From: a virus
DNA: 64,000 nt
Virus record (IMG/VR): IMGVR_UViG_3300021185_001174
Span: 56,811-120,810 of that record
Direction: 5' to 3' (one strand)
Each line of letters opens with the position of its first letter. Within the stretch, counting starts at the first letter, position 1. The notes under the pieces are model-generated. The model was not told where the DNA came from, ran no database searches, and worked only from the letters and a program-made list of their open reading frames with translations. Shown one piece after another: positions 2,204 through 29,319 of the stretch. Position numbers and translations under genes: made by a program.

Positions 2204-3466
2204 TTATTTTACTTTAGCGGCTAAGTCTTTATCTGCCTTACCCCATGTTCCTGATGATTTGGTTACAAAAGAATTGACTCTTGCTAACCCCCATTGTGTT
2301 GGATTAGTTCCTGGCCTATGGCCTGTTCTCCAAGCCGCAAATCCTCTATCAAATACTTTTCTTAATATGGCTAATGGCATACCTGACTTATCTGCTTTCT
2401 TTTTAAGAGCATCATCAGCCTTACCTTCATTAACTACATAATCTTCAAAACTTAAATGTTTGGCCATTTCTCCGTACATATCTTTATATTTCTTAGTATG
2501 TTTTGATGGCTTTGTTTTTGCTCTTGCATCTCCAGGAGCTGGTTTATATGCGGCTGGATTATTATCATCCTTTTCAGCACCCTTCTTAAAGTGGGCTTTT
2601 CTTTTGGCTGATGTTGACTTTGCAAGACCAGAGTAATAGTTAGTACCCTCAGCTTGTTCTACTTGTTCCAACCAGACTTTCTTATTACCCTTAGGGAAAG
2701 CTACTGTAAGATAATTCGCACCTTTAGTGATAATCTTACCCTTCTCTTGATTTTCTTTTAGTCTAACTGTATCACCAACATTAAACAAGTCACCTAAAAT
2801 AAACTGTTCTCTTGTTTCTGATACAGTCGGTAGTTCTATATGAGACCTAAAGCTTTTCTCTTCTTTAAGGCCCATCCCTTTTCTCACTGCATTAAATAAC
2901 TCAGCTGAACCAGTATAACCACTTGGAAGACCACTAGAAAATGTTTGTAAATCCCCTTCTGCGGCCGCTGCTCTCATTTTAGAGGCTGACATTCCTGTTA
3001 CACCTTCTGCATCTGGGTCTCTTTGCCCTGCAGAGAGTACTTTAATAGTTCCTTCAAATTGATAGAAGCCATGTCTTGCCTGAACACCATTATATTTGTT
3101 TAGTAAGATTTCAAATTCTTTTACTCTATCTGAACCTGCAACCATTGACATCTTAGTAAAACCTTGGTCATATAACTTAGTTGCGATTTCAATTATAGTA
3201 CGCACGTCGCCGTCTGCCATGATACTTCTGGCATGTCTAGGAAACATTTTTCTTAGGAACTTAATCTTGTCTTTAAATTTAAGAGGATTCTTTTTAGGGT
3301 CTTGGGATTGTGATGCGTATATTCTATATGCACCTCCACGTGATACCTTTTTAAGAGTTTCAAAAAGTTTTTCGTGGCCTGTAGTCGGCGGATTAAATCT
3401 ACCAAATACTACGGTTATTTCTTTTGATGCTTCGACTATATAGTCGCTAAAGTTTTTGACTTTCAT
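2204..3466 (-). CDS. HxGH-family nucleotidyltransferase (cytidylyl/NMN-adenylyltransferase-like) fused to additional small domains
   Basis: VVFGRFNPPTTGHEKL motif and SASKMR motif. Followed by a KOW/SH3-like segment and a C-terminal DRGFAAWRTGHRPG domain. Confidence 0.8.
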   Translation of the reverse strand: MKVKNFSDYIVEASKEITVVFGRFNPPTTGHEKLFETLKKVSRGGAYRIYASQSQDPKKNPLKFKDKIKFLRKMFPRHARSIMADGDVRTIIEIATKLYDQGFTKMSMVAGSDRVKEFEILLNKYNGVQARHGFYQFEGTIKVLSAGQRDPDAEGVTGMSASKMRAAAAEGDLQTFSSGLPSGYTGSAELFNAVRKGMGLKEEKSFRSHIELPTVSETREQFILGDLFNVGDTVRLKENQEKGKIITKGANYLTVAFPKGNKKVWLEQVEQAEGTNYYSGLAKSTSAKRKAHFKKGAEKDDNNPAAYKPAPGDARAKTKPSKHTKKYKDMYGEMAKHLSFEDYVVNEGKADDALKKKADKSGMPLAILRKVFDRGFAAWRTGHRPGTNPTQWGLARVNSFVTKSSGTWGKADKDLAAKVK

Positions 3467-11623: not shown

Positions 11624-12679
11624 TTACTCTTCCTGTAAAGTGGTTTCTAAATCTATTTCTAATAAAGGCTTATGACCAATTTGATAATAAGACTTAATGA
11701 ACTTAGCAAAGTCCGTACCTGTTAAGATAGGGTCCCAGAATTCTTTAGTAAGAGTATCTTTCTGTCTTACTTTAGGCTGTACTATTTCACCTGTTGATTG
11801 GTCTACTCTAGCATACCAACCCATAGTTGGTTTAACCACATAGTTACCAGCCAAGGCAATTTCTAGTAGGCCTGAATACTGTTCGATTCCACCTTCCCAT
11901 GATACTGATACTGGAATCTTTGATTTCTCTTTTACAAATCTTGACTTCTCTACATTAATAATAAAGTCATAACCTGTAACATCAGAACCAGTTTTATTTT
12001 GTCTACGTCCTAGAATCCAAATGTTATCAGCTGAGTAGTAGATACCCGTACCGCCTGATACGATAGCTTTAGGGAAGAGACCAATCTCTTGGTAAGTATG
12101 ATTAACTGCAAGTAGTGGTACATTTTTCATAGTAAGATATGGAGTAACCATTCTGAAAAGTCCTTTCAAAGCCTTAGCCCTGGACATATCAGCAACACCT
12201 TTTTCATTTAAGGCATCTTCTAGTTCTTTCTTAGATGCAAGGTTACCAATAGAATCAATCACAATGATAACTTTATCACCACGTTCGATATTATCTAGCT
12301 GACCTACTAAATCAAACTTAAGTTGTTCCACATCTGTAATTGGTGTATGTAATACTCTATCAGTATCAATACCAAATGCCTCGAAATATGATTGAGGCGA
12401 ACCAAACTCGGAATCATAGAATAACATTACTGCATCATCGTGTTCCTTCATATAGGCACCAGCCATGAGTAGAGCAAAACTTGTCTTAAAGTGTTTACTA
12501 GGGCCAGCCAATACAGTTAGTCCTGATGTAAGACCACCATCAATATCACCCGATAAGGCGACATTTACCATAGGTACTTCTGTTGGTACCATATCTTTTT
12601 CTGTAAAGAAAATCGATTTAGATAAGACTGATGTTGTCTTAATCTTCGAATTCTTTTTTAATTTATCCATTACTGACAT
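11624..12679 (-). CDS. uvsX: RecA-like recombinase
   Basis: AGPSKHFKT Walker A, IVIDSIGNL and VSGGTG. Confidence 0.97.
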   Translation of the reverse strand: MSVMDKLKKNSKIKTTSVLSKSIFFTEKDMVPTEVPMVNVALSGDIDGGLTSGLTVLAGPSKHFKTSFALLMAGAYMKEHDDAVMLFYDSEFGSPQSYFEAFGIDTDRVLHTPITDVEQLKFDLVGQLDNIERGDKVIIVIDSIGNLASKKELEDALNEKGVADMSRAKALKGLFRMVTPYLTMKNVPLLAVNHTYQEIGLFPKAIVSGGTGIYYSADNIWILGRRQNKTGSDVTGYDFIINVEKSRFVKEKSKIPVSVSWEGGIEQYSGLLEIALAGNYVVKPTMGWYARVDQSTGEIVQPKVRQKDTLTKEFWDPILTGTDFAKFIKSYYQIGHKPLLEIDLETTLQEE

Positions 12680-12939
12680 TATCTTTTTCTCCTGCCGTGT
12701 TGCGTCTGTTCTTGCATACGCTGTTGTTTTCTTGAACGTGCGATGGCTTCGGCCTTCTTACGCTTTCTCTTTGCAGTTGGTTTCTCATAGAACTCCTTCC
12801 TGCGTACATCCTGCAGAGTACCAGCCCTCTCAACTGCTTTTCTAAACTTTCTTAGAGCAACGTCAAACGGCATTGGTTTCTGTGGTCTTTTATCCTTAGG
12901 ATTTCTTGGTTTCCTAGGGGTTAAATCTATTGATGGCAT
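12679..12939 (-). CDS. rpsU: 30S ribosomal protein bS21 (phage-encoded)
   Basis: [37 protein letters not shown] aligns with E. coli bS21 [37 protein letters not shown]. Confidence 0.93.
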
Positions 12940-12966: not shown

Positions 12967-12995
12967 ATTATACTACAAATCACTTCGATTGTAAA
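12967..12995 (-). promoter_or_regulatory. Early promoter (rpsU-uvsX-40-41 operon)
   Basis: TTTACA-N17-TATAAT. Confidence 0.85.
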
Positions 12996-13408
12996 GTGTT
13001 TTCTTCAACTCTTTTTCTTAAATTAGATGTTGAAAATCTGTGGTCTCTTTTGTTAAAGTAAAAATCTATATCTCTTTGCTTACATAGTTCTCTACCAGTA
13101 AAGTCTTTATCCCTGTATTCTTCGCCCATTATCTTAACATCTATATGATACATTGCAAGGATATCTAGTAGCTCTTCTTCTGTATTATATACTAAAATTT
13201 CATCAACATATTTAATGGCGGCTAGTTGCGCTTGGCGTTCGACAATATTTTGAATGGGTTTGTTTTTCTCTGGTCTATCTACCGATGGGTCATTTTGTAA
13301 TGCACATATTAAATAATCACATGCGGTCTTTGCTTCTCTTAACATTGCAACATGACCACTATGTAATAAGTCAAATGTGCTGCATGTAAATCCTACTCTT
13401 TTCTTCAT
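12980..13408 (-). CDS. TagD-like (glycerol-3-phosphate) cytidylyltransferase
   Basis: GFTCSTFDLLHSGH (HxGH), IKYVDEI and RFSTSNLR. Confidence 0.85.
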   Translation of the reverse strand: MKKRVGFTCSTFDLLHSGHVAMLREAKTACDYLICALQNDPSVDRPEKNKPIQNIVERQAQLAAIKYVDEILVYNTEEELLDILAMYHIDVKIMGEEYRDKDFTGRELCKQRDIDFYFNKRDHRFSTSNLRKRVEENTLQSK

Positions 13409-14767: not shown

Positions 14768-15274
14768 CTATTTATAAAATATATGATTGTCAATAGTAAC
14801 AACTTCTGTTAGATATGGTGCCCAGTAAGGTGATACAAAGTCTGCATGATACCATAGAGAGCCACTTGTAATGTCTGGCATTTTTCCAGATATAACTAAG
14901 TCTGCGATATGTAACGATTCCATCCATGTAGTTGAATCTGTAGGTTCATCCGACTTACCATCGCAGTACCAACTGAACTGACATTTATTTCTAATAGGAA
15001 CCATATTACCTTTCCAGTTCTCTCTTAATTTAGCTTGATATACTACATCACATATAGTACTAGGAAACTGTGCATCATTTGACCTATTAACTGCCACATT
15101 GGCAACTGCAACTCTTCCAGCAAATGGTTGATTGGCTGATTCAAAATAAATGTTTTGAGCTAGACAATATCTTTCTCCGTTTTCATCAGAAGCAGCAAGT
15201 GTTGGTACTAATAGAATTAAACATACTATTGCCGCAATCCATAAACTTATATTTCCGTAGTTGGGTGATTTCAT
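14768..15274 (-). CDS. SleB/CwlJ-like cell wall hydrolase with N-terminal signal or TM segment
   Basis: CLAQNIYFES, FPSTICDVVYQ, CQFSWYCDG and YHADFVSPYW. Confidence 0.92.
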   Translation of the reverse strand: MKSPNYGNISLWIAAIVCLILLVPTLAASDENGERYCLAQNIYFESANQPFAGRVAVANVAVNRSNDAQFPSTICDVVYQAKLRENWKGNMVPIRNKCQFSWYCDGKSDEPTDSTTWMESLHIADLVISGKMPDITSGSLWYHADFVSPYWAPYLTEVVTIDNHIFYK

Positions 15275-16122
15275 AATTTCTCCATTATATATTTTTGTAA
15301 AGTATTCTTTGGTTTCCAGCCTAAGTCAATTACCTTTGCTGTCTTAAGTTCTCCATTTAATCTATTACCTGCTTTCTCTGGTAGCATTTCTGGTTGAACT
15401 TTAAGATATGAAACTAAATCTAGTATTGAATGTTGTTCTGGTGAACCAATACCATAGTTATCTCCACTACCTTTAAATGCGGCAAGTATAATACCCTCTA
15501 CAATATCATCAACGTGTGTAAAGTTTCTTACTTGAACACCTGGTGATGTAACAGGTAAAGTGGTTGCACCATCTTTGACCATCTTAAGGAACTTACCAAC
15601 TACTGTTGCGTATTGTCCTTCATTGATTTCATTATCTCCATAGACATTATAGAAGTAAACTATACTGTAATCTAAGCCGAACCATTCTGAATAGTTCTTT
15701 AGTAATTCAGTATTCTGAGCTTTAGTATATGCGTATGGGGAAGCGGCTGATGTATTAGTGGCAAACTTAGTAGATGAACCAGAATAGATTACTTTGGCAT
15801 CCTGATGTTTGGCAAACTTTAGAACTTCTGGGAAGTGTCTTAGGTTATAATCTATTACTTTATCAAAGTCATTAAACGATTGTTCTACTCTTGCATATTC
15901 GCCAAAGTGAAATATATAATCAAAGGTTTGTTCTTGATGTTGTAATGCACCAAATAAGTCCATCGGAGTACCATAGAGATACCAACATCCATCGTGTCTA
16001 TTTGACATCTGACTTGAGTGTCCGTTATCTATTGATACTACTTGATGACCTTCTGATAATAATCTTTTAATTAGATTAGAACCAATAAATCCTTCTCCGC
16101 CTGTTACTAGTATTTTGCTCAT
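15271..16122 (-). CDS. NAD-dependent nucleotide-sugar epimerase/dehydratase (extended SDR)
   Basis: GGEGFIG, YSGSS, YAYTK (YxxxK), FYNVYG and RNFTHVDD. Confidence 0.92.
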   Translation of the reverse strand: MSKILVTGGEGFIGSNLIKRLLSEGHQVVSIDNGHSSQMSNRHDGCWYLYGTPMDLFGALQHQEQTFDYIFHFGEYARVEQSFNDFDKVIDYNLRHFPEVLKFAKHQDAKVIYSGSSTKFATNTSAASPYAYTKAQNTELLKNYSEWFGLDYSIVYFYNVYGDNEINEGQYATVVGKFLKMVKDGATTLPVTSPGVQVRNFTHVDDIVEGIILAAFKGSGDNYGIGSPEQHSILDLVSYLKVQPEMLPEKAGNRLNGELKTAKVIDLGWKPKNTLQKYIMEKL

Positions 16123-16146
16123 AGTTTTACCTTGTTTAATAGATAT

Positions 16147-16175
16147 ATTATACTACACTTTTAAGTGAAAGTAAA
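16147..16175 (-). promoter_or_regulatory. Early promoter
   Basis: TTTACT-N17-TATAAT. Confidence 0.85.
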
Positions 16176-16181
16176 GTCTTT

Positions 16182-17369
16182 TTAATTATTATTGTATATA
16201 TCTCTGGTGTATACTTTTGACTCAATGATATCATCAGACATTCTATTGGTCACGATTATGTCAGATAGCTCGTTGAACTTATCTATGTCATTTTCTATAA
16301 CACAACCTAAAAACTTATCATCTTCAATCATAGGCTCATGAATAATAACTTTGACTCCAGCCTTGGTAAGTCTATCAACAACACCTTGTATGGCTGAACA
16401 CCTATAATTATCTGAACCAGATTTCATGGCTAGTCTATAGATTCCTACTACTGATACATTATCTTTCTGTTGTATCATTCTTGCAATCCAATCTTTTCTG
16501 TTCTCATTCGCGTATACAATACCTTGGATAATCTTGGTAGGAATATGATGCTTTCTAAAATTGGCAAGTAGTTGTTTTGTATCTTTAGGAAAACAGTATC
16601 CGCCATAACCAAATGATGGGTTACTATAACCTCTACCGATACGTGAATCTCCAGTAACACCTTCTATAATAGAATAGGCGTTCATATTATTTGCCTCTGC
16701 GTACATATCTAATTCATTAAAAAATGATACTCTCATCGCGAGGTATGTATTGGCAAAGAGTTTAATTGATTCTGCCTCTTTAGTTCCACATAGATTAACT
16801 GGTGGCGATGGGAAGTTTGGTATAATACATTCATTAATAAGTTTGGCAAACGATTCACCATTGTAACCAATATCACCTACTACAATTCTTTCTGGTCGTA
16901 GACAGTCTCTTAACGCTGTGCCTTCTCTTAAGAATTCTGGAGAGAATATAACTGACTTCGTATACTTCTCTTGCATATCATCAATGAATCCTACAGGTAT
17001 AGTTGACTTAACTACTATTGTGGTTGAACTTTTATCCCAGTCAGCATTATATTCTACTGCATCTCTAATACAACCTTCAACAGTATCTGTGTTAAAGTAG
17101 TTTGTTGCTTCATCATAATCAGTTGGTGTTGCGATGACCACCCAGTCAGCATCTGAATATGCAGTCTTCTTATCCATGGTCGCCTTAAGTGATAACTTGC
17201 CTTCAGCTAGTTCATCCGATATATCTTTATCTTCAATGGTTGATACGCCAAGGTTAATTGAAGCTACTCTTAACTTATCAATGTCTAAAATTGTTACATC
17301 ATGTTTCTTGGCAAACATTACTGCGTTAGCCATACCAACGTAACCCGAACCTACTACTGTTATTTTCAT
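16182..17369 (-). CDS. ugd: UDP-glucose 6-dehydrogenase
   Basis: GSGYVG, KSTIPVG, SPEFLREG and GYGGYCFPKD (catalytic Cys). Confidence 0.95.
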   Translation of the reverse strand: MKITVVGSGYVGMANAVMFAKKHDVTILDIDKLRVASINLGVSTIEDKDISDELAEGKLSLKATMDKKTAYSDADWVVIATPTDYDEATNYFNTDTVEGCIRDAVEYNADWDKSSTTIVVKSTIPVGFIDDMQEKYTKSVIFSPEFLREGTALRDCLRPERIVVGDIGYNGESFAKLINECIIPNFPSPPVNLCGTKEAESIKLFANTYLAMRVSFFNELDMYAEANNMNAYSIIEGVTGDSRIGRGYSNPSFGYGGYCFPKDTKQLLANFRKHHIPTKIIQGIVYANENRKDWIARMIQQKDNVSVVGIYRLAMKSGSDNYRCSAIQGVVDRLTKAGVKVIIHEPMIEDDKFLGCVIENDIDKFNELSDIIVTNRMSDDIIESKVYTRDIYNNN

Positions 17370-18292
17370 AAACTATTCCTATGTACAAATTCTAAGGCTC
17401 TTTCTGCCTCTTTATCTAATGGTCTTTTATTATACCAATTGCCTGTATCTAAATCTAATTCTCTACATAAGTAGGCGATTTCTTTAGAGGTAATTGGATA
17501 CTTGTTACTTATAGCGTTACCTGCTAGTGCCACCATAATCTGATACATTTTATGATACCAGCCACTGCCTGTAATCGTTCTATATTCTTGTTCTAATTTC
17601 TTTGGAAAAAACGGACAGTCTTTATAACCAGTCCATGATACCTTAGTATTAGTTAGTGAAGATTTCATGTGAGCCATCATGGCCTCTTGCATCTTCTTAG
17701 GTAATTTATCAAAGAATGAATTCCCACTTTTTTCTATATACTCATGGCGAGACATAATATCATGGGGAGATATTGGCTCACCTTGTTTAGTAAAGATAAA
17801 GTTATGCGCATTAGCATACTTGCCAGGGATGTAATACATTCTTGATAAATCTTTGGTCTGGATATCACCCATTTCACCAAGTTCTTTGTTGAGGGCATAC
17901 CAGAAGTGTTTAATATTGTCTTTGTTAACAAACTCTGTAAGGGGAAAGACAAGTCTAAACTTTGGCAAGTCTTTTGTGGATGAAGCAGTAGAGTAACAGA
18001 TATAATGATAATCTTTACATTTCTTGTCCAAGAACTCTTGTAAGTCCTCGGTGCAATCATCTACATCTATGGCACACCAGCCACCCCAACCTTGTACATT
18101 ATCATTCTTTCTTGTAGTACCAGCAGAATAAAAAGCAGGAGACATTAGTTCTGCAGACTTTTTATCTTTTCTGGGTTTCTCGGAAAGTCGATATAGTATT
18201 GTTTCAAAGTCTTTGAATGTGGGTAAATCTATACTCTTGTTAGTCTGAACATCAAAGAGTGATTCAAATAGTGTGCCTGATACTTTATCCAT
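17366..18292 (-). CDS. Archaeo-eukaryotic primase (prim-pol)-like protein
   Basis: AIDVDD (DxD), YSTASS...KFRLVFPL and DLSRMYYIP, plus a helical C-terminal domain. Confidence 0.7.
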   Translation of the reverse strand: MDKVSGTLFESLFDVQTNKSIDLPTFKDFETILYRLSEKPRKDKKSAELMSPAFYSAGTTRKNDNVQGWGGWCAIDVDDCTEDLQEFLDKKCKDYHYICYSTASSTKDLPKFRLVFPLTEFVNKDNIKHFWYALNKELGEMGDIQTKDLSRMYYIPGKYANAHNFIFTKQGEPISPHDIMSRHEYIEKSGNSFFDKLPKKMQEAMMAHMKSSLTNTKVSWTGYKDCPFFPKKLEQEYRTITGSGWYHKMYQIMVALAGNAISNKYPITSKEIAYLCRELDLDTGNWYNKRPLDKEAERALEFVHRNSL

Positions 18293-18301
18293 AATAGGTA
18301 T

Positions 18302-18330
18302 ATTATACTACATTTTAATCTGATTGTAAA
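18302..18330 (-). promoter_or_regulatory. Early promoter
   Basis: TTTACA-N17-TATAAT. Confidence 0.85.
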
Positions 18331-19226
18331 GGGGTTTTTAAAATTAATTTTAAATTTTTATAGTCGGTGAAAAATCTTCGTTTGTGTTGTAACTTCCAAC
18401 CCTTATGTGAACCTTCTACTAACTCAACAACTCTAAAGTTCTTAGGCCAGACCTTAACAAATCTCTCATAGAGTTTGCGTCTCTTCTCTTTACTTTCCCA
18501 GTGGTTCATATTACCACCTTTTTGAGTCGCAGTACCAGGAGCATCAAATAGGATATGAGAGAAAGAAATTGTACACCACTTGTTTTCTAAGGCTGTGAGT
18601 GTATAATGCCAGTCCTCTACACCTGATAGATTTTCTGGCCAAGTAACATCAGCTTCATTCTTAATGAGAACACAGCTGTATGCGAGTTGGTTTACTTTAA
18701 CTGGATATCTTTTACTAAAAGCAAATGCTGGACTTGTAAGGCCTGATATGGCAACATTAGAGAATAGACCAATTGTCTTTTCTACCACGGCCAAGGCATT
18801 GATACCTTTAACCACAACATTCTTATCATTCATTCTGATTCTAAACTTTTTAATATCATCATCCATTTGCCAGTGATATGTATCACCTTGGGCTTTAGAG
18901 TATTCTTTGATAAAGTTTCTGACATATGAAATGCCTCTATCGTTAGCTTCAATATTAACTAATATATCTTTATCGTGATATTTGGAATACTCTTCATAAT
19001 CTTGAGGTTCAACAAACAACTTATATGGTATATTTTCTTCTAATAATGTTTTAGGAGTAAATGCACAATCTGCTCTTCCCTTACTTGGGACATATATAGG
19101 ATGAGATACATCTGTATAATTTTCATGTTCTGATATAAGGTCAGAAACATATGTTACTATATCAAAGTCAGCTTCATCACTAAATAAAGGATTGTGCTCT
19201 ACTATATATTTGTTTAAGTTTGTCAT
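18315..19226 (-). CDS. GT-A glycosyltransferase, TET-associated (TAGT/GREB1-like) family, copy 1
   Basis: PIYVPSKGRAD, FVEPQDY, GISYVRNFI, WQMDDDI, EDWHYTL and KGGN. Confidence 0.8.
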   Translation of the reverse strand: MTNLNKYIVEHNPLFSDEADFDIVTYVSDLISEHENYTDVSHPIYVPSKGRADCAFTPKTLLEENIPYKLFVEPQDYEEYSKYHDKDILVNIEANDRGISYVRNFIKEYSKAQGDTYHWQMDDDIKKFRIRMNDKNVVVKGINALAVVEKTIGLFSNVAISGLTSPAFAFSKRYPVKVNQLAYSCVLIKNEADVTWPENLSGVEDWHYTLTALENKWCTISFSHILFDAPGTATQKGGNMNHWESKEKRRKLYERFVKVWPKNFRVVELVEGSHKGWKLQHKRRFFTDYKNLKLILKTPLQSD

Positions 19227-19585
19227 TATTCTACTAGAATATGTCCTTCGTCAATTACTTCGTCAACATCTGGGTTGCCATCAATTTGGTCTTCATGCAT
19301 CCATCTAAGAAGCGAGTTCTTACTTTTGTCTGCAGGTGGATACCAAACACCTTTTGTTTTAGGTGTTACTGTTTGGCCAATAAGTTCTGCAAATGCCAAT
19401 AGGTCTTCTTCATTACGGAATCTTACCTTAATACATTTCCATGCCTCATTCTGCTTCTGGTCAAACTCTGGCATTGAATCCCACTGATGTGGTGTCTCTG
19501 CCTCTTCTTCTCCTGATAATACAAATAGACTTTCACCTTCGTAATTGATTTGTCTATCTTTGGTTGAATTATTTTTACTTGCCAT
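19226..19585 (-). CDS. Conserved accessory protein between the two glycosyltransferases
   Basis: 119 aa with WDSMPEF, VRFRNEED and KTKGVWYP; translationally coupled on both sides. Confidence 0.7.
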   Translation of the reverse strand: MASKNNSTKDRQINYEGESLFVLSGEEEAETPHQWDSMPEFDQKQNEAWKCIKVRFRNEEDLLAFAELIGQTVTPKTKGVWYPPADKSKNSLLRWMHEDQIDGNPDVDEVIDEGHILVE

Positions 19586-20484
19586 TATACTGCCTCCTTC
19601 TTTAATCTGACTAGTTTAAGACCTTTATTGTCTGTTACCTTAGGTATATTTAGGTCTGGTTTGAGAGTTGGTTTTTCTTTTTGGAATATAGAGTAATCAA
19701 TGTGGTGATGCCACCTACCCCACTTCCAAGTAACTTTAACACAATCTGGATGTTGTCGTCTTAATGATTCTGCAAACTCTCTTCTGTTATCAAAATCATC
19801 ATTACCTTTACGATTGCCTTGGTCACCTGTTTGGTCAATGTTATATAACTCTTCCGTATTACCACCTTTCATTGTCATAGTAGTAATCTTACCACAATTA
19901 AAGTTGTTAAATAGGAAAGTATGATAACCAGCCTTCATAATTCTTAGAGATAAATCTGTATCTTCATTGAATCGGCCTCTCCACGCAAACTCTGGATAGA
20001 TATCATTCGCCAATAAGATACATGAATATACCCTAGTGTTATGATAATATGGAGGTCGCTTGGTAGTCGCAGGTAGGAAATAACTATAGTTCATACCAGA
20101 CATTTTAACATTTTCATATCGGTCGGTAAACTCTTCACACGCAGTGAAACAAGTACCATCTGTTACCTTAATCTTAGCATTCTTATGGAGTCTATACATA
20201 TGTTGTATATTATCATCAAGAATCCAATGTCTTTCAGCACCAGTAGAACATGCATGTTCCCAAACAAAGTTACGGACTGGTATAGAACCTAGACCTAGAT
20301 TAGTAAATGGAGTAACTAGAATATTGGCTGGGTCAATGACTGCCGCATAATCGTTATACTCTTGAGGTTCAATTACTATAGTATAAGGTGTGCCGTTTGC
20401 TTCTAGTGTCTTAACTGTTAGTCTAGTGTCAGCACGACCCTTTGATATAATATAGATTGGATATTTTGGTTGATTACCTGCCAT
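19585..20484 (-). CDS. GT-A glycosyltransferase, TAGT/GREB1-like family, copy 2
   Basis: PIYIISKGRAD, VIEPQEY, GSIPVRNFV, WILDDNI, FNEDTDLSL and KGGNT. Confidence 0.82.
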   Translation of the reverse strand: MAGNQPKYPIYIISKGRADTRLTVKTLEANGTPYTIVIEPQEYNDYAAVIDPANILVTPFTNLGLGSIPVRNFVWEHACSTGAERHWILDDNIQHMYRLHKNAKIKVTDGTCFTACEEFTDRYENVKMSGMNYSYFLPATTKRPPYYHNTRVYSCILLANDIYPEFAWRGRFNEDTDLSLRIMKAGYHTFLFNNFNCGKITTMTMKGGNTEELYNIDQTGDQGNRKGNDDFDNRREFAESLRRQHPDCVKVTWKWGRWHHHIDYSIFQKEKPTLKPDLNIPKVTDNKGLKLVRLKKEAV

Positions 20485-20792
20485 TATTCCTCCTTGATAA
20501 AGATACCATCTACCATTTTACCTTTTCGGTCTTTGATATCATTATACGCCACTTCTAAACATCTATCGATAGTGAGATTATTTCTCATAGCAATATTAAT
20601 TAATACTACCATACAATCTCCAATATCATCTGCGACATCTTTACCCTTACATACATTATCAGAAAGTTCACCGACTTCCTGAATCAGTTTACATACTTGG
20701 TCCTTATCTGTGGCTCCATCAATAAGATTTCTGTCTTGATGCCACTGGCCAATTTTCTGGACCAATTCACCTGTTCGAGCACTTGTATTCAT
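20484..20792 (-). CDS. mazG: MazG-like nucleotide pyrophosphohydrolase
   Basis: KLIQEVGEL...DDIGD (ExxE...D) and AYNDIKDRKG. Confidence 0.85.
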   Translation of the reverse strand: MNTSARTGELVQKIGQWHQDRNLIDGATDKDQVCKLIQEVGELSDNVCKGKDVADDIGDCMVVLINIAMRNNLTIDRCLEVAYNDIKDRKGKMVDGIFIKEE

Positions 20793-21079
20793 TAGACTAT
20801 GATATCCGTGTTTGGTGTAATTAAAGATGATTTAGGCTTAAGTTGTGCCTGAATCTGTTGTACTAATTCATCTAATGGGTCAGCAATAAACAGTACAAAC
20901 TGCTTGTTGATTTTAAGACCATCTTTAGCATTCTTAGTATATGGCATGAATGGCATAAATGCAATCTTTCCTTCTCCGCCTGGGATTAGGACAAAGCCAT
21001 TTTTAACGATAACAGAGTTATCACTTTCAGTGACATCTCCAATGATTTCTTCTCCTGATGAGATTCTTACTAGTTTCAT
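20792..21079 (-). CDS. Conserved hypothetical protein (Sm-like start MKLVRISSGEEII)
   Basis: 95 aa ORF with its own promoter. Confidence 0.75.
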   Translation of the reverse strand: MKLVRISSGEEIIGDVTESDNSVIVKNGFVLIPGGEGKIAFMPFMPYTKNAKDGLKINKQFVLFIADPLDELVQQIQAQLKPKSSLITPNTDIIV

Positions 21080-21108
21080 ATTATTTCCTTAGTGTGTTTA
21101 TATGTTAT

Positions 21109-21137
21109 ATTATACTATACTTTTAACCAAAAGTAAA
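21109..21137 (-). promoter_or_regulatory. Early promoter (mazG-glycosyltransferase operon)
   Basis: TTTACT-N17-TATAAT. Confidence 0.85.
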
Positions 21138-21142
21138 GTGTT

Positions 21143-23650
21143 TTATCCAAAAAAGTCCTCTAAACTTGAAGTTTCTTCGGTATTCCATCCAATCGCCTTG
21201 AAGATAGGTTCTATAGGGTCAAGGAATGTTTTTTGAAATTGTGTCTCGTAATCTATATAGGAATCCAATTCAAACTCTTTTGGGAGATACTGCATGAAGC
21301 CGATTACATTTTCTTTGATAGGATTGGGTGACTTGAGATATATAAATTTAATCTTCTCGCCATTCTTAATTGGCTGATACTTTTTGGTCAGACTTTTATT
21401 CTTTAACATTCTGTTATGGAGTAGAGCGGCACGAACATGCATTGGACAACCCTTCTTGTAAATGGTCTGCATATTTGAATACTCTGTAACATTACTAACG
21501 CCACGAGGGAATGCAATATCATGGGCTGGTAATGTTTGGAAGTAATCCTTGAATTGTAAGATAGCCTGTTGATTATCTTTCTCGGAACCCTTCATAATTA
21601 CTTTGAACAATTCTTTAAGAGCATCTCGGCAAGGGGCAGGAGTTGAAGATTTAATAGCCTCGATACCCATGATTTTGAGTTTAGGTTCTTTGTATCGAAC
21701 ACCCTCGTTATCATGCACGTTTAGGATATATCTTTTCTTGGCTGTCCATATGGCACGGTCTGCAATGGCCTCTCTTTTCATAACCATACGATTATCGATG
21801 CCACCCATATGGTCAAACAGTTCTTGATATGCCTGACTAAGGACTGGTTCTAGTTTTTCACTAGCAACTTTATCAAGAAAGTCAACCGGATTGGATGGGT
21901 TAACCTGTTCGACCAATGGGCCAAGATTAACATAGAGCGAGTCTGTGTCAATGGCAATGATATAATCGGTATCTGTGTTCATGACTTTATTTAGGTATTT
22001 ATTTAAAGCGACTTCTGCCCAACGGATAGTAAGCTGACCAGATAATGTAATTGCCTCTGCAATACGTTGGTCAAAGAAACGGAAGTACTTGTTACCCATA
22101 GCGCCATAGAGTGAGTTAAGTAGAATTTTAATAGCCATCTGTTGATTTTCTGCCACGGATATTTTACGTTCTATATCATAGAGTTTTTGTTTATCACCAG
22201 GAACTACCTTCTGTAATTCTTTCTGAGCCTCAATCATCTGTTTCTTGATTATGACACGTTCACTATATAAATCATCTACTAGGGTAGGCATCATGCCTTT
22301 CTTATCACTACTAAAGCATTGACCATTACCGCCTACAGCATGACCATCTCGGTCAAAGGTATACCCATCAAGTATCTTATCGATATTGATAGGAAGGACT
22401 TGGCCGTTTAAGATAGTTTCGGGCGACATATTATATTGCATAATGATTGACGGATAGAGAGAGTTAAGGTCAAACGATACCACGTGTTCGTGTAAACCAA
22501 CTACTGGGTCTTTTACATATCCGCCAGGGTAATTAGTCTTAATCTTATTCTCGGAGAATGGCATTGCAATCTTTCGGTCATTGAGATATCTGTAAATAAT
22601 AGTATCCCAGATTGCAGTAACTCCGAACGTGTCCGAATAGTTAACGCCACCTTTATATGCCATAGTCAACATAAGAGTGATAAGGCCCATCTTGTCTTCT
22701 AGTCTGTCAACCAACTCAACATCTTTGATATTATAATCAATAAACTTTTGGTGGTCATTTTTGTATAGACTATGGAGTGAGCCGTATTCTTCATATGACA
22801 GTTTCTTCTCGCCTAGAATAACGTGAGCAATATGATTAAGAGCATAAGATTCTTGGGCTGTGTAAGTATACTTCTGAAATAGTTCCATGTAATCTGCATG
22901 ACCAATACCCTTGATATCAAAGATAGTCTGTTCTCTGTTCATTTTACGAGCAGTTCTTCTGTCTACCATACCCCAAGGAGAAAGCCTTTTAGGAGCATCA
23001 TCACCAAGCATTCTGATAATACGATTTACAATGTATGGTATATCAAAGTACATAGTATTCCAGCCAGTAATAACATCAGGACATTGACTAGGTAGTGACC
23101 AGTGATTAATAAAATTATGTAATAGTGTAAGTTCTGATTCACATTTTACATAGACTACGCGGTGTGATTTCATATAAGATTGGTCTGTATCGAAATCTCC
23201 AAGACCCCACACATAATAAGTATTGTCAATATTGTTCTTCATCGCAATGGATATGATAGGGTGTTCTGCTTGTTCTGGTTCTGGGAAACCATCATCGGAA
23301 GCAACCTCGATATCAATAGAGGTTACGTTGATTAGGTTACGATTAAATTCTATCTCGCCAGGGAACTGGTCGTTGATAAACTGGGATATGTATCTGTCAT
23401 TGCCATAGATTTCTCTACCAGCAGTATGCTTATTGATATCCATCCAGTCTTTAGCCTCACGCATAGAATCGAACTTGATAGGTGCACATGGATTACCATC
23501 GAGCGAAGTCCAATCTCCCTGCGGAGTATTTACGAATAAGGTGGGTTTGTATTTGATGCGCTTTGCAACTTTAGTGCCATTTTCATAGCCACGATAAAGT
23601 AACATATTCGCATATCGAGTTACATTTGTATAAAAATTCATATAGTCCAA
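21143..23650 (-). CDS. gp43: Family B DNA polymerase
   Basis: DIEV exonuclease motif, SFDLNSLYPS, KILLNSLYGA and IDTDS. Confidence 0.98.
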   Translation of the reverse strand: MDYMNFYTNVTRYANMLLYRGYENGTKVAKRIKYKPTLFVNTPQGDWTSLDGNPCAPIKFDSMREAKDWMDINKHTAGREIYGNDRYISQFINDQFPGEIEFNRNLINVTSIDIEVASDDGFPEPEQAEHPIISIAMKNNIDNTYYVWGLGDFDTDQSYMKSHRVVYVKCESELTLLHNFINHWSLPSQCPDVITGWNTMYFDIPYIVNRIIRMLGDDAPKRLSPWGMVDRRTARKMNREQTIFDIKGIGHADYMELFQKYTYTAQESYALNHIAHVILGEKKLSYEEYGSLHSLYKNDHQKFIDYNIKDVELVDRLEDKMGLITLMLTMAYKGGVNYSDTFGVTAIWDTIIYRYLNDRKIAMPFSENKIKTNYPGGYVKDPVVGLHEHVVSFDLNSLYPSIIMQYNMSPETILNGQVLPINIDKILDGYTFDRDGHAVGGNGQCFSSDKKGMMPTLVDDLYSERVIIKKQMIEAQKELQKVVPGDKQKLYDIERKISVAENQQMAIKILLNSLYGAMGNKYFRFFDQRIAEAITLSGQLTIRWAEVALNKYLNKVMNTDTDYIIAIDTDSLYVNLGPLVEQVNPSNPVDFLDKVASEKLEPVLSQAYQELFDHMGGIDNRMVMKREAIADRAIWTAKKRYILNVHDNEGVRYKEPKLKIMGIEAIKSSTPAPCRDALKELFKVIMKGSEKDNQQAILQFKDYFQTLPAHDIAFPRGVSNVTEYSNMQTIYKKGCPMHVRAALLHNRMLKNKSLTKKYQPIKNGEKIKFIYLKSPNPIKENVIGFMQYLPKEFELDSYIDYETQFQKTFLDPIEPIFKAIGWNTEETSSLEDFFG

Positions 23651-27905: not shown

Positions 27906-28199
27906 TTACTTTGCATTATTTCTATCATGCTCATATAAAGCAAGTAATCCATAATGTAGAACCTTCATCAGGTCTTTGCGCCACTCCTGCGGAGTATCAC
28001 CCTTCTTGCCATAACGTGCATTATACTTATCTACATTTCCTAAGAAGAATCCTAGGCCATGTCCTCGGTCGATGATAACTTCACTTGACTGAAGTCCTCC
28101 TTGACCATAATGTGCATTATAGGTTGAATCTATGTAATCATGGAGCTCTTCAATAAGAGCCCCTTCATTAAATTTGTAATCTGGTTTAGACTGTTTCAT
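27906..28199 (-). CDS. DUF3310/SaV-like protein (putative nucleotide-binding)
   Basis: YNAHY...GFFLGNVDKYNARYGKK...DLMKVLHY. Start moved to MKQSK at 28199. Confidence 0.7.
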   Translation of the reverse strand: MKQSKPDYKFNEGALIEELHDYIDSTYNAHYGQGGLQSSEVIIDRGHGLGFFLGNVDKYNARYGKKGDTPQEWRKDLMKVLHYGLLALYEHDRNNAK

Positions 28200-29319
28200 A
28201 TGTGTCCTCGGTTGTAGTTTCATCTTCGAAGGTAACTCCTGAATCCACTTTAGTGTATAAGTCCAAGAAGGCAGCCTTAGTATCATCATCAAATCTTGCG
28301 ATACATAATTCTATGGCTTTCATCTTGTTATCAAAGATAGAAAAAGTTTGAACTATGTGACAGAGCCTTCTGGTTGAAATTACCTCGTCAACTCCATCAT
28401 CATAGAATGTCTTTCTGATAATGTCAGCCCAAGATACTAGTTTAGTCGCGAACTCTACATCTACTTTGCCGAACTTTTCCATATGTTTAGCAACGATTTT
28501 ATTCTCCACTGATTGACTTGGGAAAGCCTGGTCTATGGCTACTGTGAATCTCTCCAAGAAAGCATCATCAATGATTGAAGCGGCTGTAAATCTGCCATCT
28601 TCTGAGCCTTTACCTTTGGTATTGGCTGTTGCAATGACATTGAAACCTGGACTTGGTTCTACTACTTCACCAGTCTTTTTGACTAGTACTGGTTTTCCTT
28701 CTAGGATACCTTGTAGACACATAATCTTGTTAGTCGCTCTATCGACCTCATCCAGAAGAAGAATAGCTCCTCTCTCCATAGCCTTGAGAACCGGCCCTTT
28801 AGAGAATACTGTTTCTCCATTGATAAGTCTGAATCCACCTAGTAGGTCGTCCTCATCCGTCTCAGGATTAATTTGAACTCTGATGAACTCTCTACCTAGT
28901 TTAGCAGCCGCTTGTTCAACCATGAAAGTCTTACCGTTACCTGATAAACCAGATACATAGACTGGGTAGAACATTTCGGACTTGAGGATTTTAACCACAT
29001 CCGAAAAGGCACCCCATGGGACAAAAGTTGGGTCTTTTTTAGCAAAGTTTGATTCTTCATTTACTATTGATTGCATCTTAACCACGTTTGAGAAACCAGT
29101 AATTGGTTCTTTATTAACTGGGACAATCATAGCTGATAAGTCATAAACACCAGGTTTAACTCTTATCTTTGCATCGATTAAGTCCCAAAAGTCTTTTCTT
29201 GAATAACCCAATGAGTCAGCTGTATCACTGATTTGGGCTCTCTTGAACTCTGTCTGGTCTGGGAACCTCTGAGCCAGGGTTTCAAGGATTATTTGAGTTG
29301 ATTTTTTCATTGTATTCAT
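28186..29319 (-). CDS. MoxR/CobS-like AAA+ ATPase
   Basis: GLSGNGKT, LLDEVD, ATAN and FLERF. Confidence 0.92.
   Translation of the reverse strand: MNTMKKSTQIILETLAQRFPDQTEFKRAQISDTADSLGYSRKDFWDLIDAKIRVKPGVYDLSAMIVPVNKEPITGFSNVVKMQSIVNEESNFAKKDPTFVPWGAFSDVVKILKSEMFYPVYVSGLSGNGKTFMVEQAAAKLGREFIRVQINPETDEDDLLGGFRLINGETVFSKGPVLKAMERGAILLLDEVDRATNKIMCLQGILEGKPVLVKKTGEVVEPSPGFNVIATANTKGKGSEDGRFTAASIIDDAFLERFTVAIDQAFPSQSVENKIVAKHMEKFGKVDVEFATKLVSWADIIRKTFYDDGVDEVISTRRLCHIVQTFSIFDNKMKAIELCIARFDDDTKAAFLDLYTKVDSGVTFEDETTTEDTYETV

Follow-up and report, generated by a model that had tools for sequence, protein, structure and literature searches.

A cluster of glycosylation genes from a T4-like phage was analysed in a window of 64,000 nucleotides, comprising bases 56811-120810 of the 120,810-bp IMG/VR record IMGVR_UViG_3300021185_001174 (record G000; CheckV completeness 67%). 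This cassette encodes two glycosyltransferases (GTs) of the TAGT family, TAGT1 and TAGT2, a small companion protein, p119, a nucleotide-sugar dehydrogenase, Ugd, and an SDR-type enzyme. It was considered to have an even chance of serving to glycosylate phage DNA with a phage-made hexuronic acid, through a two-part TAGT1-p119 enzyme whose product would be extended by TAGT2. The evidence comprises the identities of the genes, the intact motifs of both transferases, the obligatory pairing of TAGT1 with p119 together with fusions of p119 to ParB_N in other phages, the co-occurrence of TAGT, Ugd and SDR, and the location of the cassette at the T4 gene 42/beta-gt position. We infer the DNA target, the uronic-acid donor, the order of the transferases and the biological purpose. 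New here are the adaptor domain p119, the three-fold linkage of transferase, Ugd and SDR, and phage Kuja as a cultured model; the formation of hexuronic-acid-5-hydroxymethylcytosine (hexuronic-acid-5hmC) by a phage GT-A enzyme and an epimerase was already known, and 'solitary' TAGTs had been flagged as undefined in a 2026 paper.

Two TAGT-family transferases with intact catalytic motifs

The initial annotation had listed genes for Ugd, an SDR, two TAGTs, a MazG-like protein and a prim-pol-like protein, and each was located where it had been placed, on the minus strand, through Pfam, PHROG and NCBIfam matches. TAGT1 (19585-20484, minus strand), a GT-A enzyme of the p119-dependent TAGT subfamily and the proposed transferase of the first sugar, matched PF20691 with an E-value of 2.4e-43 (148.9 bits). 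The GT-A enzyme TAGT2 (18315-19226, minus strand), proposed to transfer the second sugar, matched the same family at 4.2e-24 (86.1 bits), both scores lying above the curated gathering score of 27.5 bits; phrog_842 was likewise matched by both. The suspected paralogy of the pair was borne out by 34% identity between them (E 7e-28). The active-site residues were kept in TAGT1 (R17, D90-D91 and E174-D175) as well as in TAGT2 (R51, D122-D123 and E204-D205), and the R..DD..ED columns were conserved in at least 90% of 46 family sequences, including the TET-linked enzyme of Nonlabens phage P12024L. These columns agree with the R...DDD...EDY/F motif that is common to validated phage DNA GT-A enzymes and the base-J glucosyltransferase, as described in a preprint (bioRxiv 10.1101/2023.12.21.572611). 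On sequence grounds, TAGT1 and TAGT2 are true TAGT-family GT-A enzymes in which the catalytic motif is intact. The GT-A domain of a naturally fused homologue, P0003, which is 47% identical to TAGT1, was modelled with a predicted local distance difference test (pLDDT) score above 90, and its comparison with solved structures returned generic GT-A matches only, at about E 1e-6.

Homologues of TAGT1 were found at 44 IMG/VR loci (loci are given L-numbers and the genome records compared G-numbers), and the protein was too distant from the T-even enzymes to give a tblastn match at 1e-5. Characterised members of the TAGT family act on DNA-linked acceptors. According to a survey published in 2026, 288 of 753 GT-encoding phage genomes carry a 'solitary' TAGT of undefined function, the class to which this cassette belongs. 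The TAGT-p119 pair of other phages adjoins FkbM-type and class I methyltransferases, GT4 or GT32, which suggests tailored glycans.

TAGT2 is optional in relatives, being missing from L013, L014, L016, L017 and L030. Where it was present at L011 (8468-9394), it was only 52% identical to that of the window, amid neighbours that were far closer (gp43, MazG and primase 96-99%, TAGT1 91%, p119 84%). The divergence of TAGT2 amid flanks of 84-99% identity fits arms-race diversification, as of a trait under diversifying selection. Ugd followed the same pattern in L008-L010, with 56-57% identity, and the TAGT2 and Ugd swaps look like cassette-like allelic replacement inside a conserved operon.

A conserved partner domain of the transferase

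The proposed partner or adaptor of TAGT1, p119 (19226-19585, minus strand; 119 residues), matched no family in Pfam or PHROG. With a profile built from a core of about 70 residues, the domain was detected at 40 of the 44 TAGT1-homologue loci, the misses being three contig ends and one weak fused form, and across the unrelated phage backbones of these loci the p119 family was the only gene kept beside the transferase. The domain accompanies this TAGT subfamily almost everywhere, and the coupled accessory protein of the initial annotation is a real, conserved partner. In T4-like phages it immediately follows the transferase gene, and in small phages it immediately precedes it. It is fused to the transferase N-terminus in both enzymes of Kuja and in those of Tenacibaculum phage PTm1, Aeromonas phage 65 and Paraglaciecola GD virus 1. 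The TET-linked P12024L enzyme has no p119 domain.

Fusions of p119 to ParB_N were also observed. The forms of 190-205 residues that were checked (L044 and L045) consist of ParB_N and a C-terminal p119 domain, and one protein of 504 residues joins TAGT, ParB_N and p119 in a single chain. It has been shown that the thymine dioxygenase of a phage gains activity, specifically on double-stranded DNA, from a ParB that has no DNA-binding domain (PMC13229309), which makes the p119-ParB_N fusions the strongest indirect pointer to a DNA substrate. No match to ParB_N (PF02195) was found in G000.

Of the 3,290 representative clusters that the p119 profile matched, 2,303 reached E 1e-10 or better. The 150 best matches were mostly free proteins of 70-160 residues; about a quarter of them were proteins of 180-280 residues with the domain at the C-terminus, and six were 315-478 residues long. 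The nearest Atlas clusters to p119 were all viral, and none had a Pfam family. p119 is a widespread, previously unnamed domain, and its definition is new here.

At L045 (8172-11270), from a complete 34-kb phage with terminal repeats (G039), two tandem ParB_N-p119 proteins were found together with a GT32-type enzyme (Gly_transf_sug), a TAGT and a helix-turn-helix protein, directly ahead of three large genes coding for 427-540 residues. G039 was found to be without ThyA, TET/JBP, ThyX, C5 methylase, radical SAM and TGT.

Nucleotide-sugar enzymes linked to the transferases

Ugd (16182-17369, minus strand), a predicted nucleotide-sugar 6-dehydrogenase that would convert UDP-glucose to UDP-glucuronate, contains all three UDPG_MGDP_dh domains (N-terminal, central and C-terminal). 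It scored 297 bits against TIGR03026, the NCBIfam model for dehydrogenases of nucleoside diphosphate (NDP) sugars (cut-off 190), and matched the E. coli-type model NF011631 over its full length (1e-133, 446 bits); because the latter score lies below the equivalog cut-off of 757, UDP-glucose is named as the presumed substrate. SDR (15271-16122, minus strand; 283 residues) is a short extended SDR of the NDP-sugar epimerase type, with matches to Pfam Epimerase (5e-35) and phrog_540 (2e-48). It reached no NCBIfam equivalog, and its PDB matches were spread over GalE, UDP-glucuronate (UDP-GlcA) epimerase, UXS and dehydratases. The GxxGxxG, SGSS and YxxxK motifs and the Ser-Tyr-Lys triad are present, the Ser-to-Tyr spacing is unusually short, and no acidic residue follows the Ser. 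UXS and ArnA decarboxylases carry a Thr-Ser-Glu signature, and 4,6-dehydratases an Asp-Glu pair. Because no acidic residue follows the Ser, SDR was read as an epimerase and not as a 4,6-dehydratase or a UXS/ArnA-type decarboxylase, and it is proposed to be a UDP-glucuronate 4-epimerase. The initial annotation had left the choice between a uronic acid and a pentose. The uronic acid was supported by the linkage of Ugd and SDR to TAGTs in three phage settings, whereas the same serine context spoke against the pentose; a pentose donor (UDP-xylose or UDP-arabinose) is unlikely and was dropped as the leading option, SDR being without the Thr-Ser-Glu of UXS/ArnA and RB69-type arabinose genes not having been seen.

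The first of these settings is the T4-like clade, where the order TAGT1-p119-(TAGT2)-primase-Ugd-SDR was found at no fewer than 15 loci, with 53-98% identity; more distant T4-like phages hold a different Ugd/SDR pair, a phosphomannomutase and the cytidylyltransferase at this site. The cultured Vibrio cholerae phage Kuja (vB_VchM_Kuja, Ackermannviridae) encodes two p119-TAGT fusions along with Ugd and SDR. Its Ugd, gp100, is 41% identical to that of the window and is directly followed by a 284-residue epimerase, gp101. This shares 46% identity with the window SDR, against 32% for the phage homologue next in rank; the transferase pair and the Ugd/SDR pair lie about 60 kb apart. In an uncultured clade (L098 and L110), genes for an NAD-dependent DNA ligase, a TAGT, a p119-like protein, a Ugd-like protein and an SDR of 49% identity stand side by side, uninterrupted by a primase. 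A link between TAGT, Ugd and this SDR subtype thus exists in three phage settings that are separate from one another. In a set of 50,697 phage records, of which 25 carried the TAGT subfamily and 71 carried Ugd, an overlap of about 0.04 records was expected by chance, and one phage, Kuja, was observed.

The clusters of the uncultured clade span L098:7938-14762 and L110:7894-13556, the clade record being 128.6 kb long and 73% complete, with a gene for a NadR-like nicotinamide mononucleotide adenylyltransferase upstream. The Ugd-like protein of both loci is short (280 residues) and is without the ends of the usual enzyme.

Genomic position and organisation of the cassette

The source is a marine-type T4-like myovirus of about 35% GC, with nearly every gene on the minus strand and a DNA polymerase about 50% identical to that of 'Phage C48C1' and 47-49% identical to those of cyanomyoviruses. 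The cassette lies on the minus strand between gp43 (21143-23650) and uvsX (11624-12679). Read 5' to 3' after gp43, the order is p95, MazG-like, TAGT1, p119, TAGT2, AEP primase-like, Ugd, SDR and a Hydrolase_2 endolysin, past which follow a dCMP deaminase, a cytidylyltransferase-like protein, bS21, uvsX, gp41 and ThyX; SDR follows TAGT2 on that strand at a distance of about 2.2 kb. The genes from p95 to TAGT2 form a gapless run of five in which neighbours share one base, in agreement with the single operon that had been annotated for the transferases, the accessory protein and MazG. The T4 order 45-44-62-regA-43-imm-42-bgt-segA-uvsX-40-41 was checked on NC_000866, and by this comparison the cassette lies in the gp43-uvsX interval that holds the T4 dCMP hydroxymethylase (gene 42) and beta-gt, as had originally been claimed. 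The TAGT of T6 occupies the T4 beta-gt position.

Promoter-like sites of early type (TTTAC[AT]-17-TATAAT) occur in three intergenic gaps on the minus strand, at 21137, 18330 and 16175, each being a sigma70-like consensus match only. TTTACT-17-TATAAT at 21109..21137, in the 63-bp gap after gp43, stands ahead of p95-MazG-TAGT1-p119-TAGT2; TTTACA-17-TATAAT at 18302..18330 ahead of the primase-Ugd unit; and TTTACT-17-TATAAT at 16147..16175 ahead of SDR. Neither membrane-span-like segments nor signal peptides were found in the cassette proteins.

Proposed pathway and the acceptor of the sugar

In the proposed pathway, Ugd would convert host UDP-glucose to UDP-glucuronate, from which the short epimerase-type SDR would make, most likely, UDP-galacturonate. 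TAGT1 and its adaptor p119 would then act as a two-part enzyme placing the first sugar onto replicated phage DNA, and the swappable paralogue TAGT2 would add a second sugar, with phage DNA resistant to host nucleases as the expected outcome. Sugar-coated DNA is one of the main phage escapes from restriction enzymes, CRISPR and DNA glycosylases, and it also hampers sequencing and cloning. The cassette is of interest for its own supply of an acidic sugar, for its widespread adaptor domain (about 3,300 clusters) and for the fact that no known base-preparing enzyme was found with it. If the DNA reading is true, a new kind of acceptor would extend the range of DNA modifications known so far; should the acceptor be 5hmC or 5-hydroxymethyluracil (5hmU), marine T4-like phages, which are abundant, would still provide a naturally occurring modification of DNA by a uronic acid. 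As the cultured phage Kuja has the same four components, the acceptor question is directly testable at the bench.

Several points weigh against DNA glycosylation by the cassette. The initial annotation had recognised no TET/JBP, DNA methylase or hydroxymethylase in the window. For TET/JBP, C5 methylase and a ThyA-type hydroxymethylase this was borne out there and over all 120.8 kb of the record, in which no ThyA homologue, TET/JBP, 2OG-FeII_Oxy_3, radical SAM, TGT or C5 methylase was found. Profiles were used for TET/JBP (PF12851, validated on Nonlabens phage P12024L), C5 methylase (PF00145) and ThyA (PF00303). PF12851 overlooks roughly 5-17% of phage 5mYOX enzymes, which bears on the TET/JBP negatives, and, the record being 67% complete, a third of the genome is unseen, which bears on all acceptor negatives. 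The ThyX of this phage matched that of PBCV-1 at 1e-57 with the RHR...S motif intact; it is canonical, and thymidylate is therefore made normally. Ugd and SDR have promoter-like sites of their own, and the primase gene stands between them and the transferases. Predicted alone, p119 is largely unstructured (pLDDT 61; 54-78 for the corresponding part of P0003), and it is acidic, with 13 Lys and Arg against 25 Asp and Glu, making DNA binding of its own unlikely; p119 was therefore read as an adaptor that docks on the transferase and not as a DNA binder. No member of the p119-dependent TAGT subfamily has been characterised biochemically. For T4-like cyanophages, clusters of NDP-sugar enzymes and GTs have been interpreted as systems acting on host surface polysaccharides, and GT contigs without a neighbouring 5mYOX or ThyS were regarded as less obviously DNA-directed by the authors of a metavirome survey (bioRxiv 10.1101/2023.12.21.572611).

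The negative results were not confined to G000. Scans of about 80 open reading frames (ORFs) of the record against Pfam or PHROG likewise turned up no enzyme that would make an acceptor, and in the whole record there was no match to alpha-GT (PF11440) or beta-GT (PF09198, searched without a positive control). Among 48 related records searched, which include T4-like fragments of 93, 66, 55 and 46 kb, neither ThyA nor TET/JBP was found. Eight of these 48 records are complete or near-complete TAGT-p119 genomes (G025, G027, G032, G033, G036, G038, G039 and G046), three of which have terminal repeats, the negatives being weaker for G032, a bounded record. All eight except G046 were also without radical SAM, TGT and 2OG-FeII_Oxy_3, and among these seven ThyX occurred in only one and a C5 methylase in one. 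Kuja (one ThyA homologue) and other cultured carriers of the TAGT subfamily do encode a ThyA homologue. The possibility that ThyX is a hidden hydroxymethylase was ruled out by its match to the PBCV-1 enzyme and its intact motif. The sugar would be received either by 5hmC or 5hmU, in which case the gene responsible for that base would lie in the third of the genome that is not sequenced, or by an acceptor for which no known base-activating enzyme is required. In the latter case, TAGT1-p119, which is joined to ParB_N elsewhere, would be a self-sufficient enzyme that glycosylates a DNA acceptor without any known phage base-activating enzyme, here with phage-made hexuronic acid. The acceptor would then be a canonical base or a position in the DNA backbone, or else a base produced by an enzyme family yet to be recognised, and this reading was held to be doubtful.

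Alternative explanations

It was considered whether the transferases and sugar-nucleotide enzymes modify a non-DNA glycan of the cell or virion, such as a capsule, O-antigen, exopolysaccharide or structural protein. This would agree with the negative result for base-activating enzymes in the record, with the interpretation that T4-like cyanophages have received where NDP-sugar enzymes accompany polymorphic GT genes, with the CsgG, CsgF and curlin-repeat genes that the same phage carries outside the window, and with the 4-bp overlap of SDR with the cell-wall hydrolase gene. Against it stand the DNA-linked acceptors of the characterised TAGT members and the fusion of the p119 partner domain to ParB_N. 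The neighbouring genes, which code for DNA polymerase, primase or DNA ligase, or are terminase-sized genes in small phages, also argue against a non-DNA target, as do the early type of the promoter-like sites and the missing membrane segments and signal peptides. Such a target was judged unlikely, and so, jointly with it, was the purpose that it would imply, namely superinfection exclusion or surface remodelling. Equal weight, and thus a low probability, was given to the possibility that TAGT1, p119 and TAGT2 do glycosylate DNA but use a host donor such as UDP-glucose, Ugd and SDR being unrelated auxiliary metabolic genes in a hyperplastic interval. Most cultured carriers of the TAGT subfamily (phage 65, Aeh1, PTm1, henriette, POP12 and GD1) have no Ugd homologue, the two gene pairs of Kuja are far apart, and the separate promoter-like sites and the intervening primase gene of this phage point the same way. 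However, the co-occurrence of TAGT and Ugd in the 50,697 records is far above chance, the closest SDR by far is also that of Kuja, TAGT, p119, Ugd and SDR adjoin in L098 and L110 where no primase intervenes, and at least 15 T4-like loci share the arrangement.

The acceptor could also be a protein, either p119 itself or a DNA-bound protein, in which case the cassette would constitute a system for protein O-glycosylation. p119 is predicted mostly unstructured on its own, its Thr74 and Thr77 are nearly invariant, and protein hydroxylysine glycosyltransferases were among the closest solved folds to the transferase domain. These fold matches are generic to GT-A enzymes, however, and the fusion of p119 to the enzyme N-terminus and to ParB_N suits an adaptor better than a substrate; with no precedent in the TAGT family, a protein acceptor was regarded as very improbable.

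Comparison with characterised systems

The closest precedent for the proposed transfer of a hexuronic acid to DNA is given by the 'subclass II' clusters of Pyle et al. (bioRxiv 10.1101/2023.12.21.572611). A GT-A and epimerase pair from a metavirome there gave hexuronic-acid-5hmC in E. coli, and a second GT without the epimerase gave an isomer. A uronic-acid sugar on DNA is a reasonable prediction, but, as a phage GT-A enzyme and epimerase have already yielded this product, it is not new chemistry. Both systems pair an R..DD(D)..ED GT-A enzyme (JGT/TAGT-like) with an NDP-sugar epimerase, and TAGT2 is likened to the second transferases that extend the glycan in the 'subclass II' clusters. The 5hmC of the 'subclass II' clusters is created by their C5 methylase and 5mYOX, neither of which was found in the 120.8-kb record; this phage also has its own Ugd and a transferase with a separate p119 domain, which the accessible part of the preprint does not mention.

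The beta-glucosyl-HMC alpha-glucosyltransferase of T2 and T6 (HMC, hydroxymethylcytosine), the founding TAGT, belongs to the same family (PF20691) and lies in the same gene 43-uvsX interval. The T6 enzyme adds glucose onto glucose and not onto the base, and the T-even system includes a dCMP hydroxymethylase, an alpha-GT and a beta-GT, none of which was found in this record. In the ParB-dependent 5mYOX clusters (O'Toole et al., PNAS 2026, PMC13229309), a ParB-type helper without a DNA-binding domain activates the enzyme on double-stranded DNA, and the genes most often found beside phage 5mYOX are those for GTs and ParBs (PMC13229309). The partner of that helper is an oxygenase, whereas the partner of p119 is a transferase; neither ParB_N nor 5mYOX was found in the record of this phage, the p119 module alone remaining, as a free protein.

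Bacillus phage SP-15 resembles the present phage in combining a phage-encoded UDP-glucose dehydrogenase with a uronic acid in its virion DNA, which bears glucose and phosphoglucuronolactone on dihydroxypentyluracil. Its Ugd is only 27% identical, SP-15 was not among the TAGT1 homologues, and it has a ThyA-type hydroxymethylase; its uronic acid is phosphodiester-linked to a side chain made before replication. The arabinosyl-5-hydroxycytosine pathways of RB69 and DLP3 (NAR 2026, PMC13326640) are alike in that a T4-like phage supplies its own nucleotide sugar and several transferases build the glycan, in their case on a cytosine derivative. They rely on GT-B transferases, on a ThyA homologue producing 5hodCMP and on the synthesis of UDP-arabinose by way of ribulose-5-phosphate; none of these was found here.

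Neighbouring genes and further observations

The first gene of the block, p95 (20792..21079, minus strand; 95 residues), matched phrog_527 at 1e-16 and was kept beside MazG/TAGT1 in 12 related loci. It is followed by the gene for a MazG-like, all-alpha NTP pyrophosphatase (20484-20792, minus strand; 102 residues), which matched phrog_1992 (7e-38) and phrog_715 (1e-34) and scored 18.3 bits against Pfam MazG, below the cut-off. The T-even phages remove the canonical nucleotide with the dCTPase gp56; here this MazG-like enzyme adjoins TAGT1. Its homologues were found in 1,231 phage records, mostly of Streptococcus and Staphylococcus phages. They are common in phages not known for modified DNA, and the membership in the pathway for which MazG had been put forward is for this reason unsupported; that it is a gp56-like dCTPase is likewise unsupported, such homologues being common in ordinary siphophages. 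A barely related pyrophosphatase of the PRA-PH type takes the MazG position in distant T4-like relatives, a replacement that hints at some coupling to the cassette.

The AEP primase-like gene (17366-18292, minus strand) matched phrog_9765, a DNA primase family, at 1.3e-48 and had no Pfam match. Although it follows TAGT/p119 in 16 T4-like loci, it is missing from the L098 and L110 clusters and was rejected as a pathway member, being probably a replication gene interleaved with the cassette. It could serve as the replicative primase in this phage lineage; among the scanned ORFs of the 120.8-kb record, in which no search aimed at gp61 was made, there was no match to gp61 (DnaG-type) primase. The cytidylyltransferase-like protein (12980..13408, minus strand; 142 residues) matched CTP_transf_like at 1e-14, and rfaE domain II (1e-21) and TagD (9e-18) below their cut-offs. 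Its gene directly follows SDR in six distant T4-like relatives (L025, L028, L032, L058, L061 and L067), and it could supply a second activated donor, for example a CDP-polyol or ADP-heptose.

Other genes of the window lie outside the cassette. An 86-residue homologue of ribosomal protein bS21 (12679-12939, minus strand; PDB bS21 chains, E 2e-15) is encoded directly upstream of uvsX, a protein of 420 residues (2204-3466, minus strand) combines DUF5824 with a weak cytidylyltransferase-like match (E 0.003, below the cut-off), and a CbbQ/NirQ-type AAA_5 ATPase of 377 residues (28186-29319, minus strand) was found among the replication genes. Outside the window, at 29.7-35.6 kb of the genome (L005:10712-16626), the same phage carries a block of host-surface and signalling genes, coding for a CHASE2-adenylate/guanylate cyclase (614 residues), two curlin-repeat proteins (weak matches), a FecR-like protein, CsgG (5e-54) and CsgF (1e-12). 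Such a curli secretion set is unusual for a T4-like phage.

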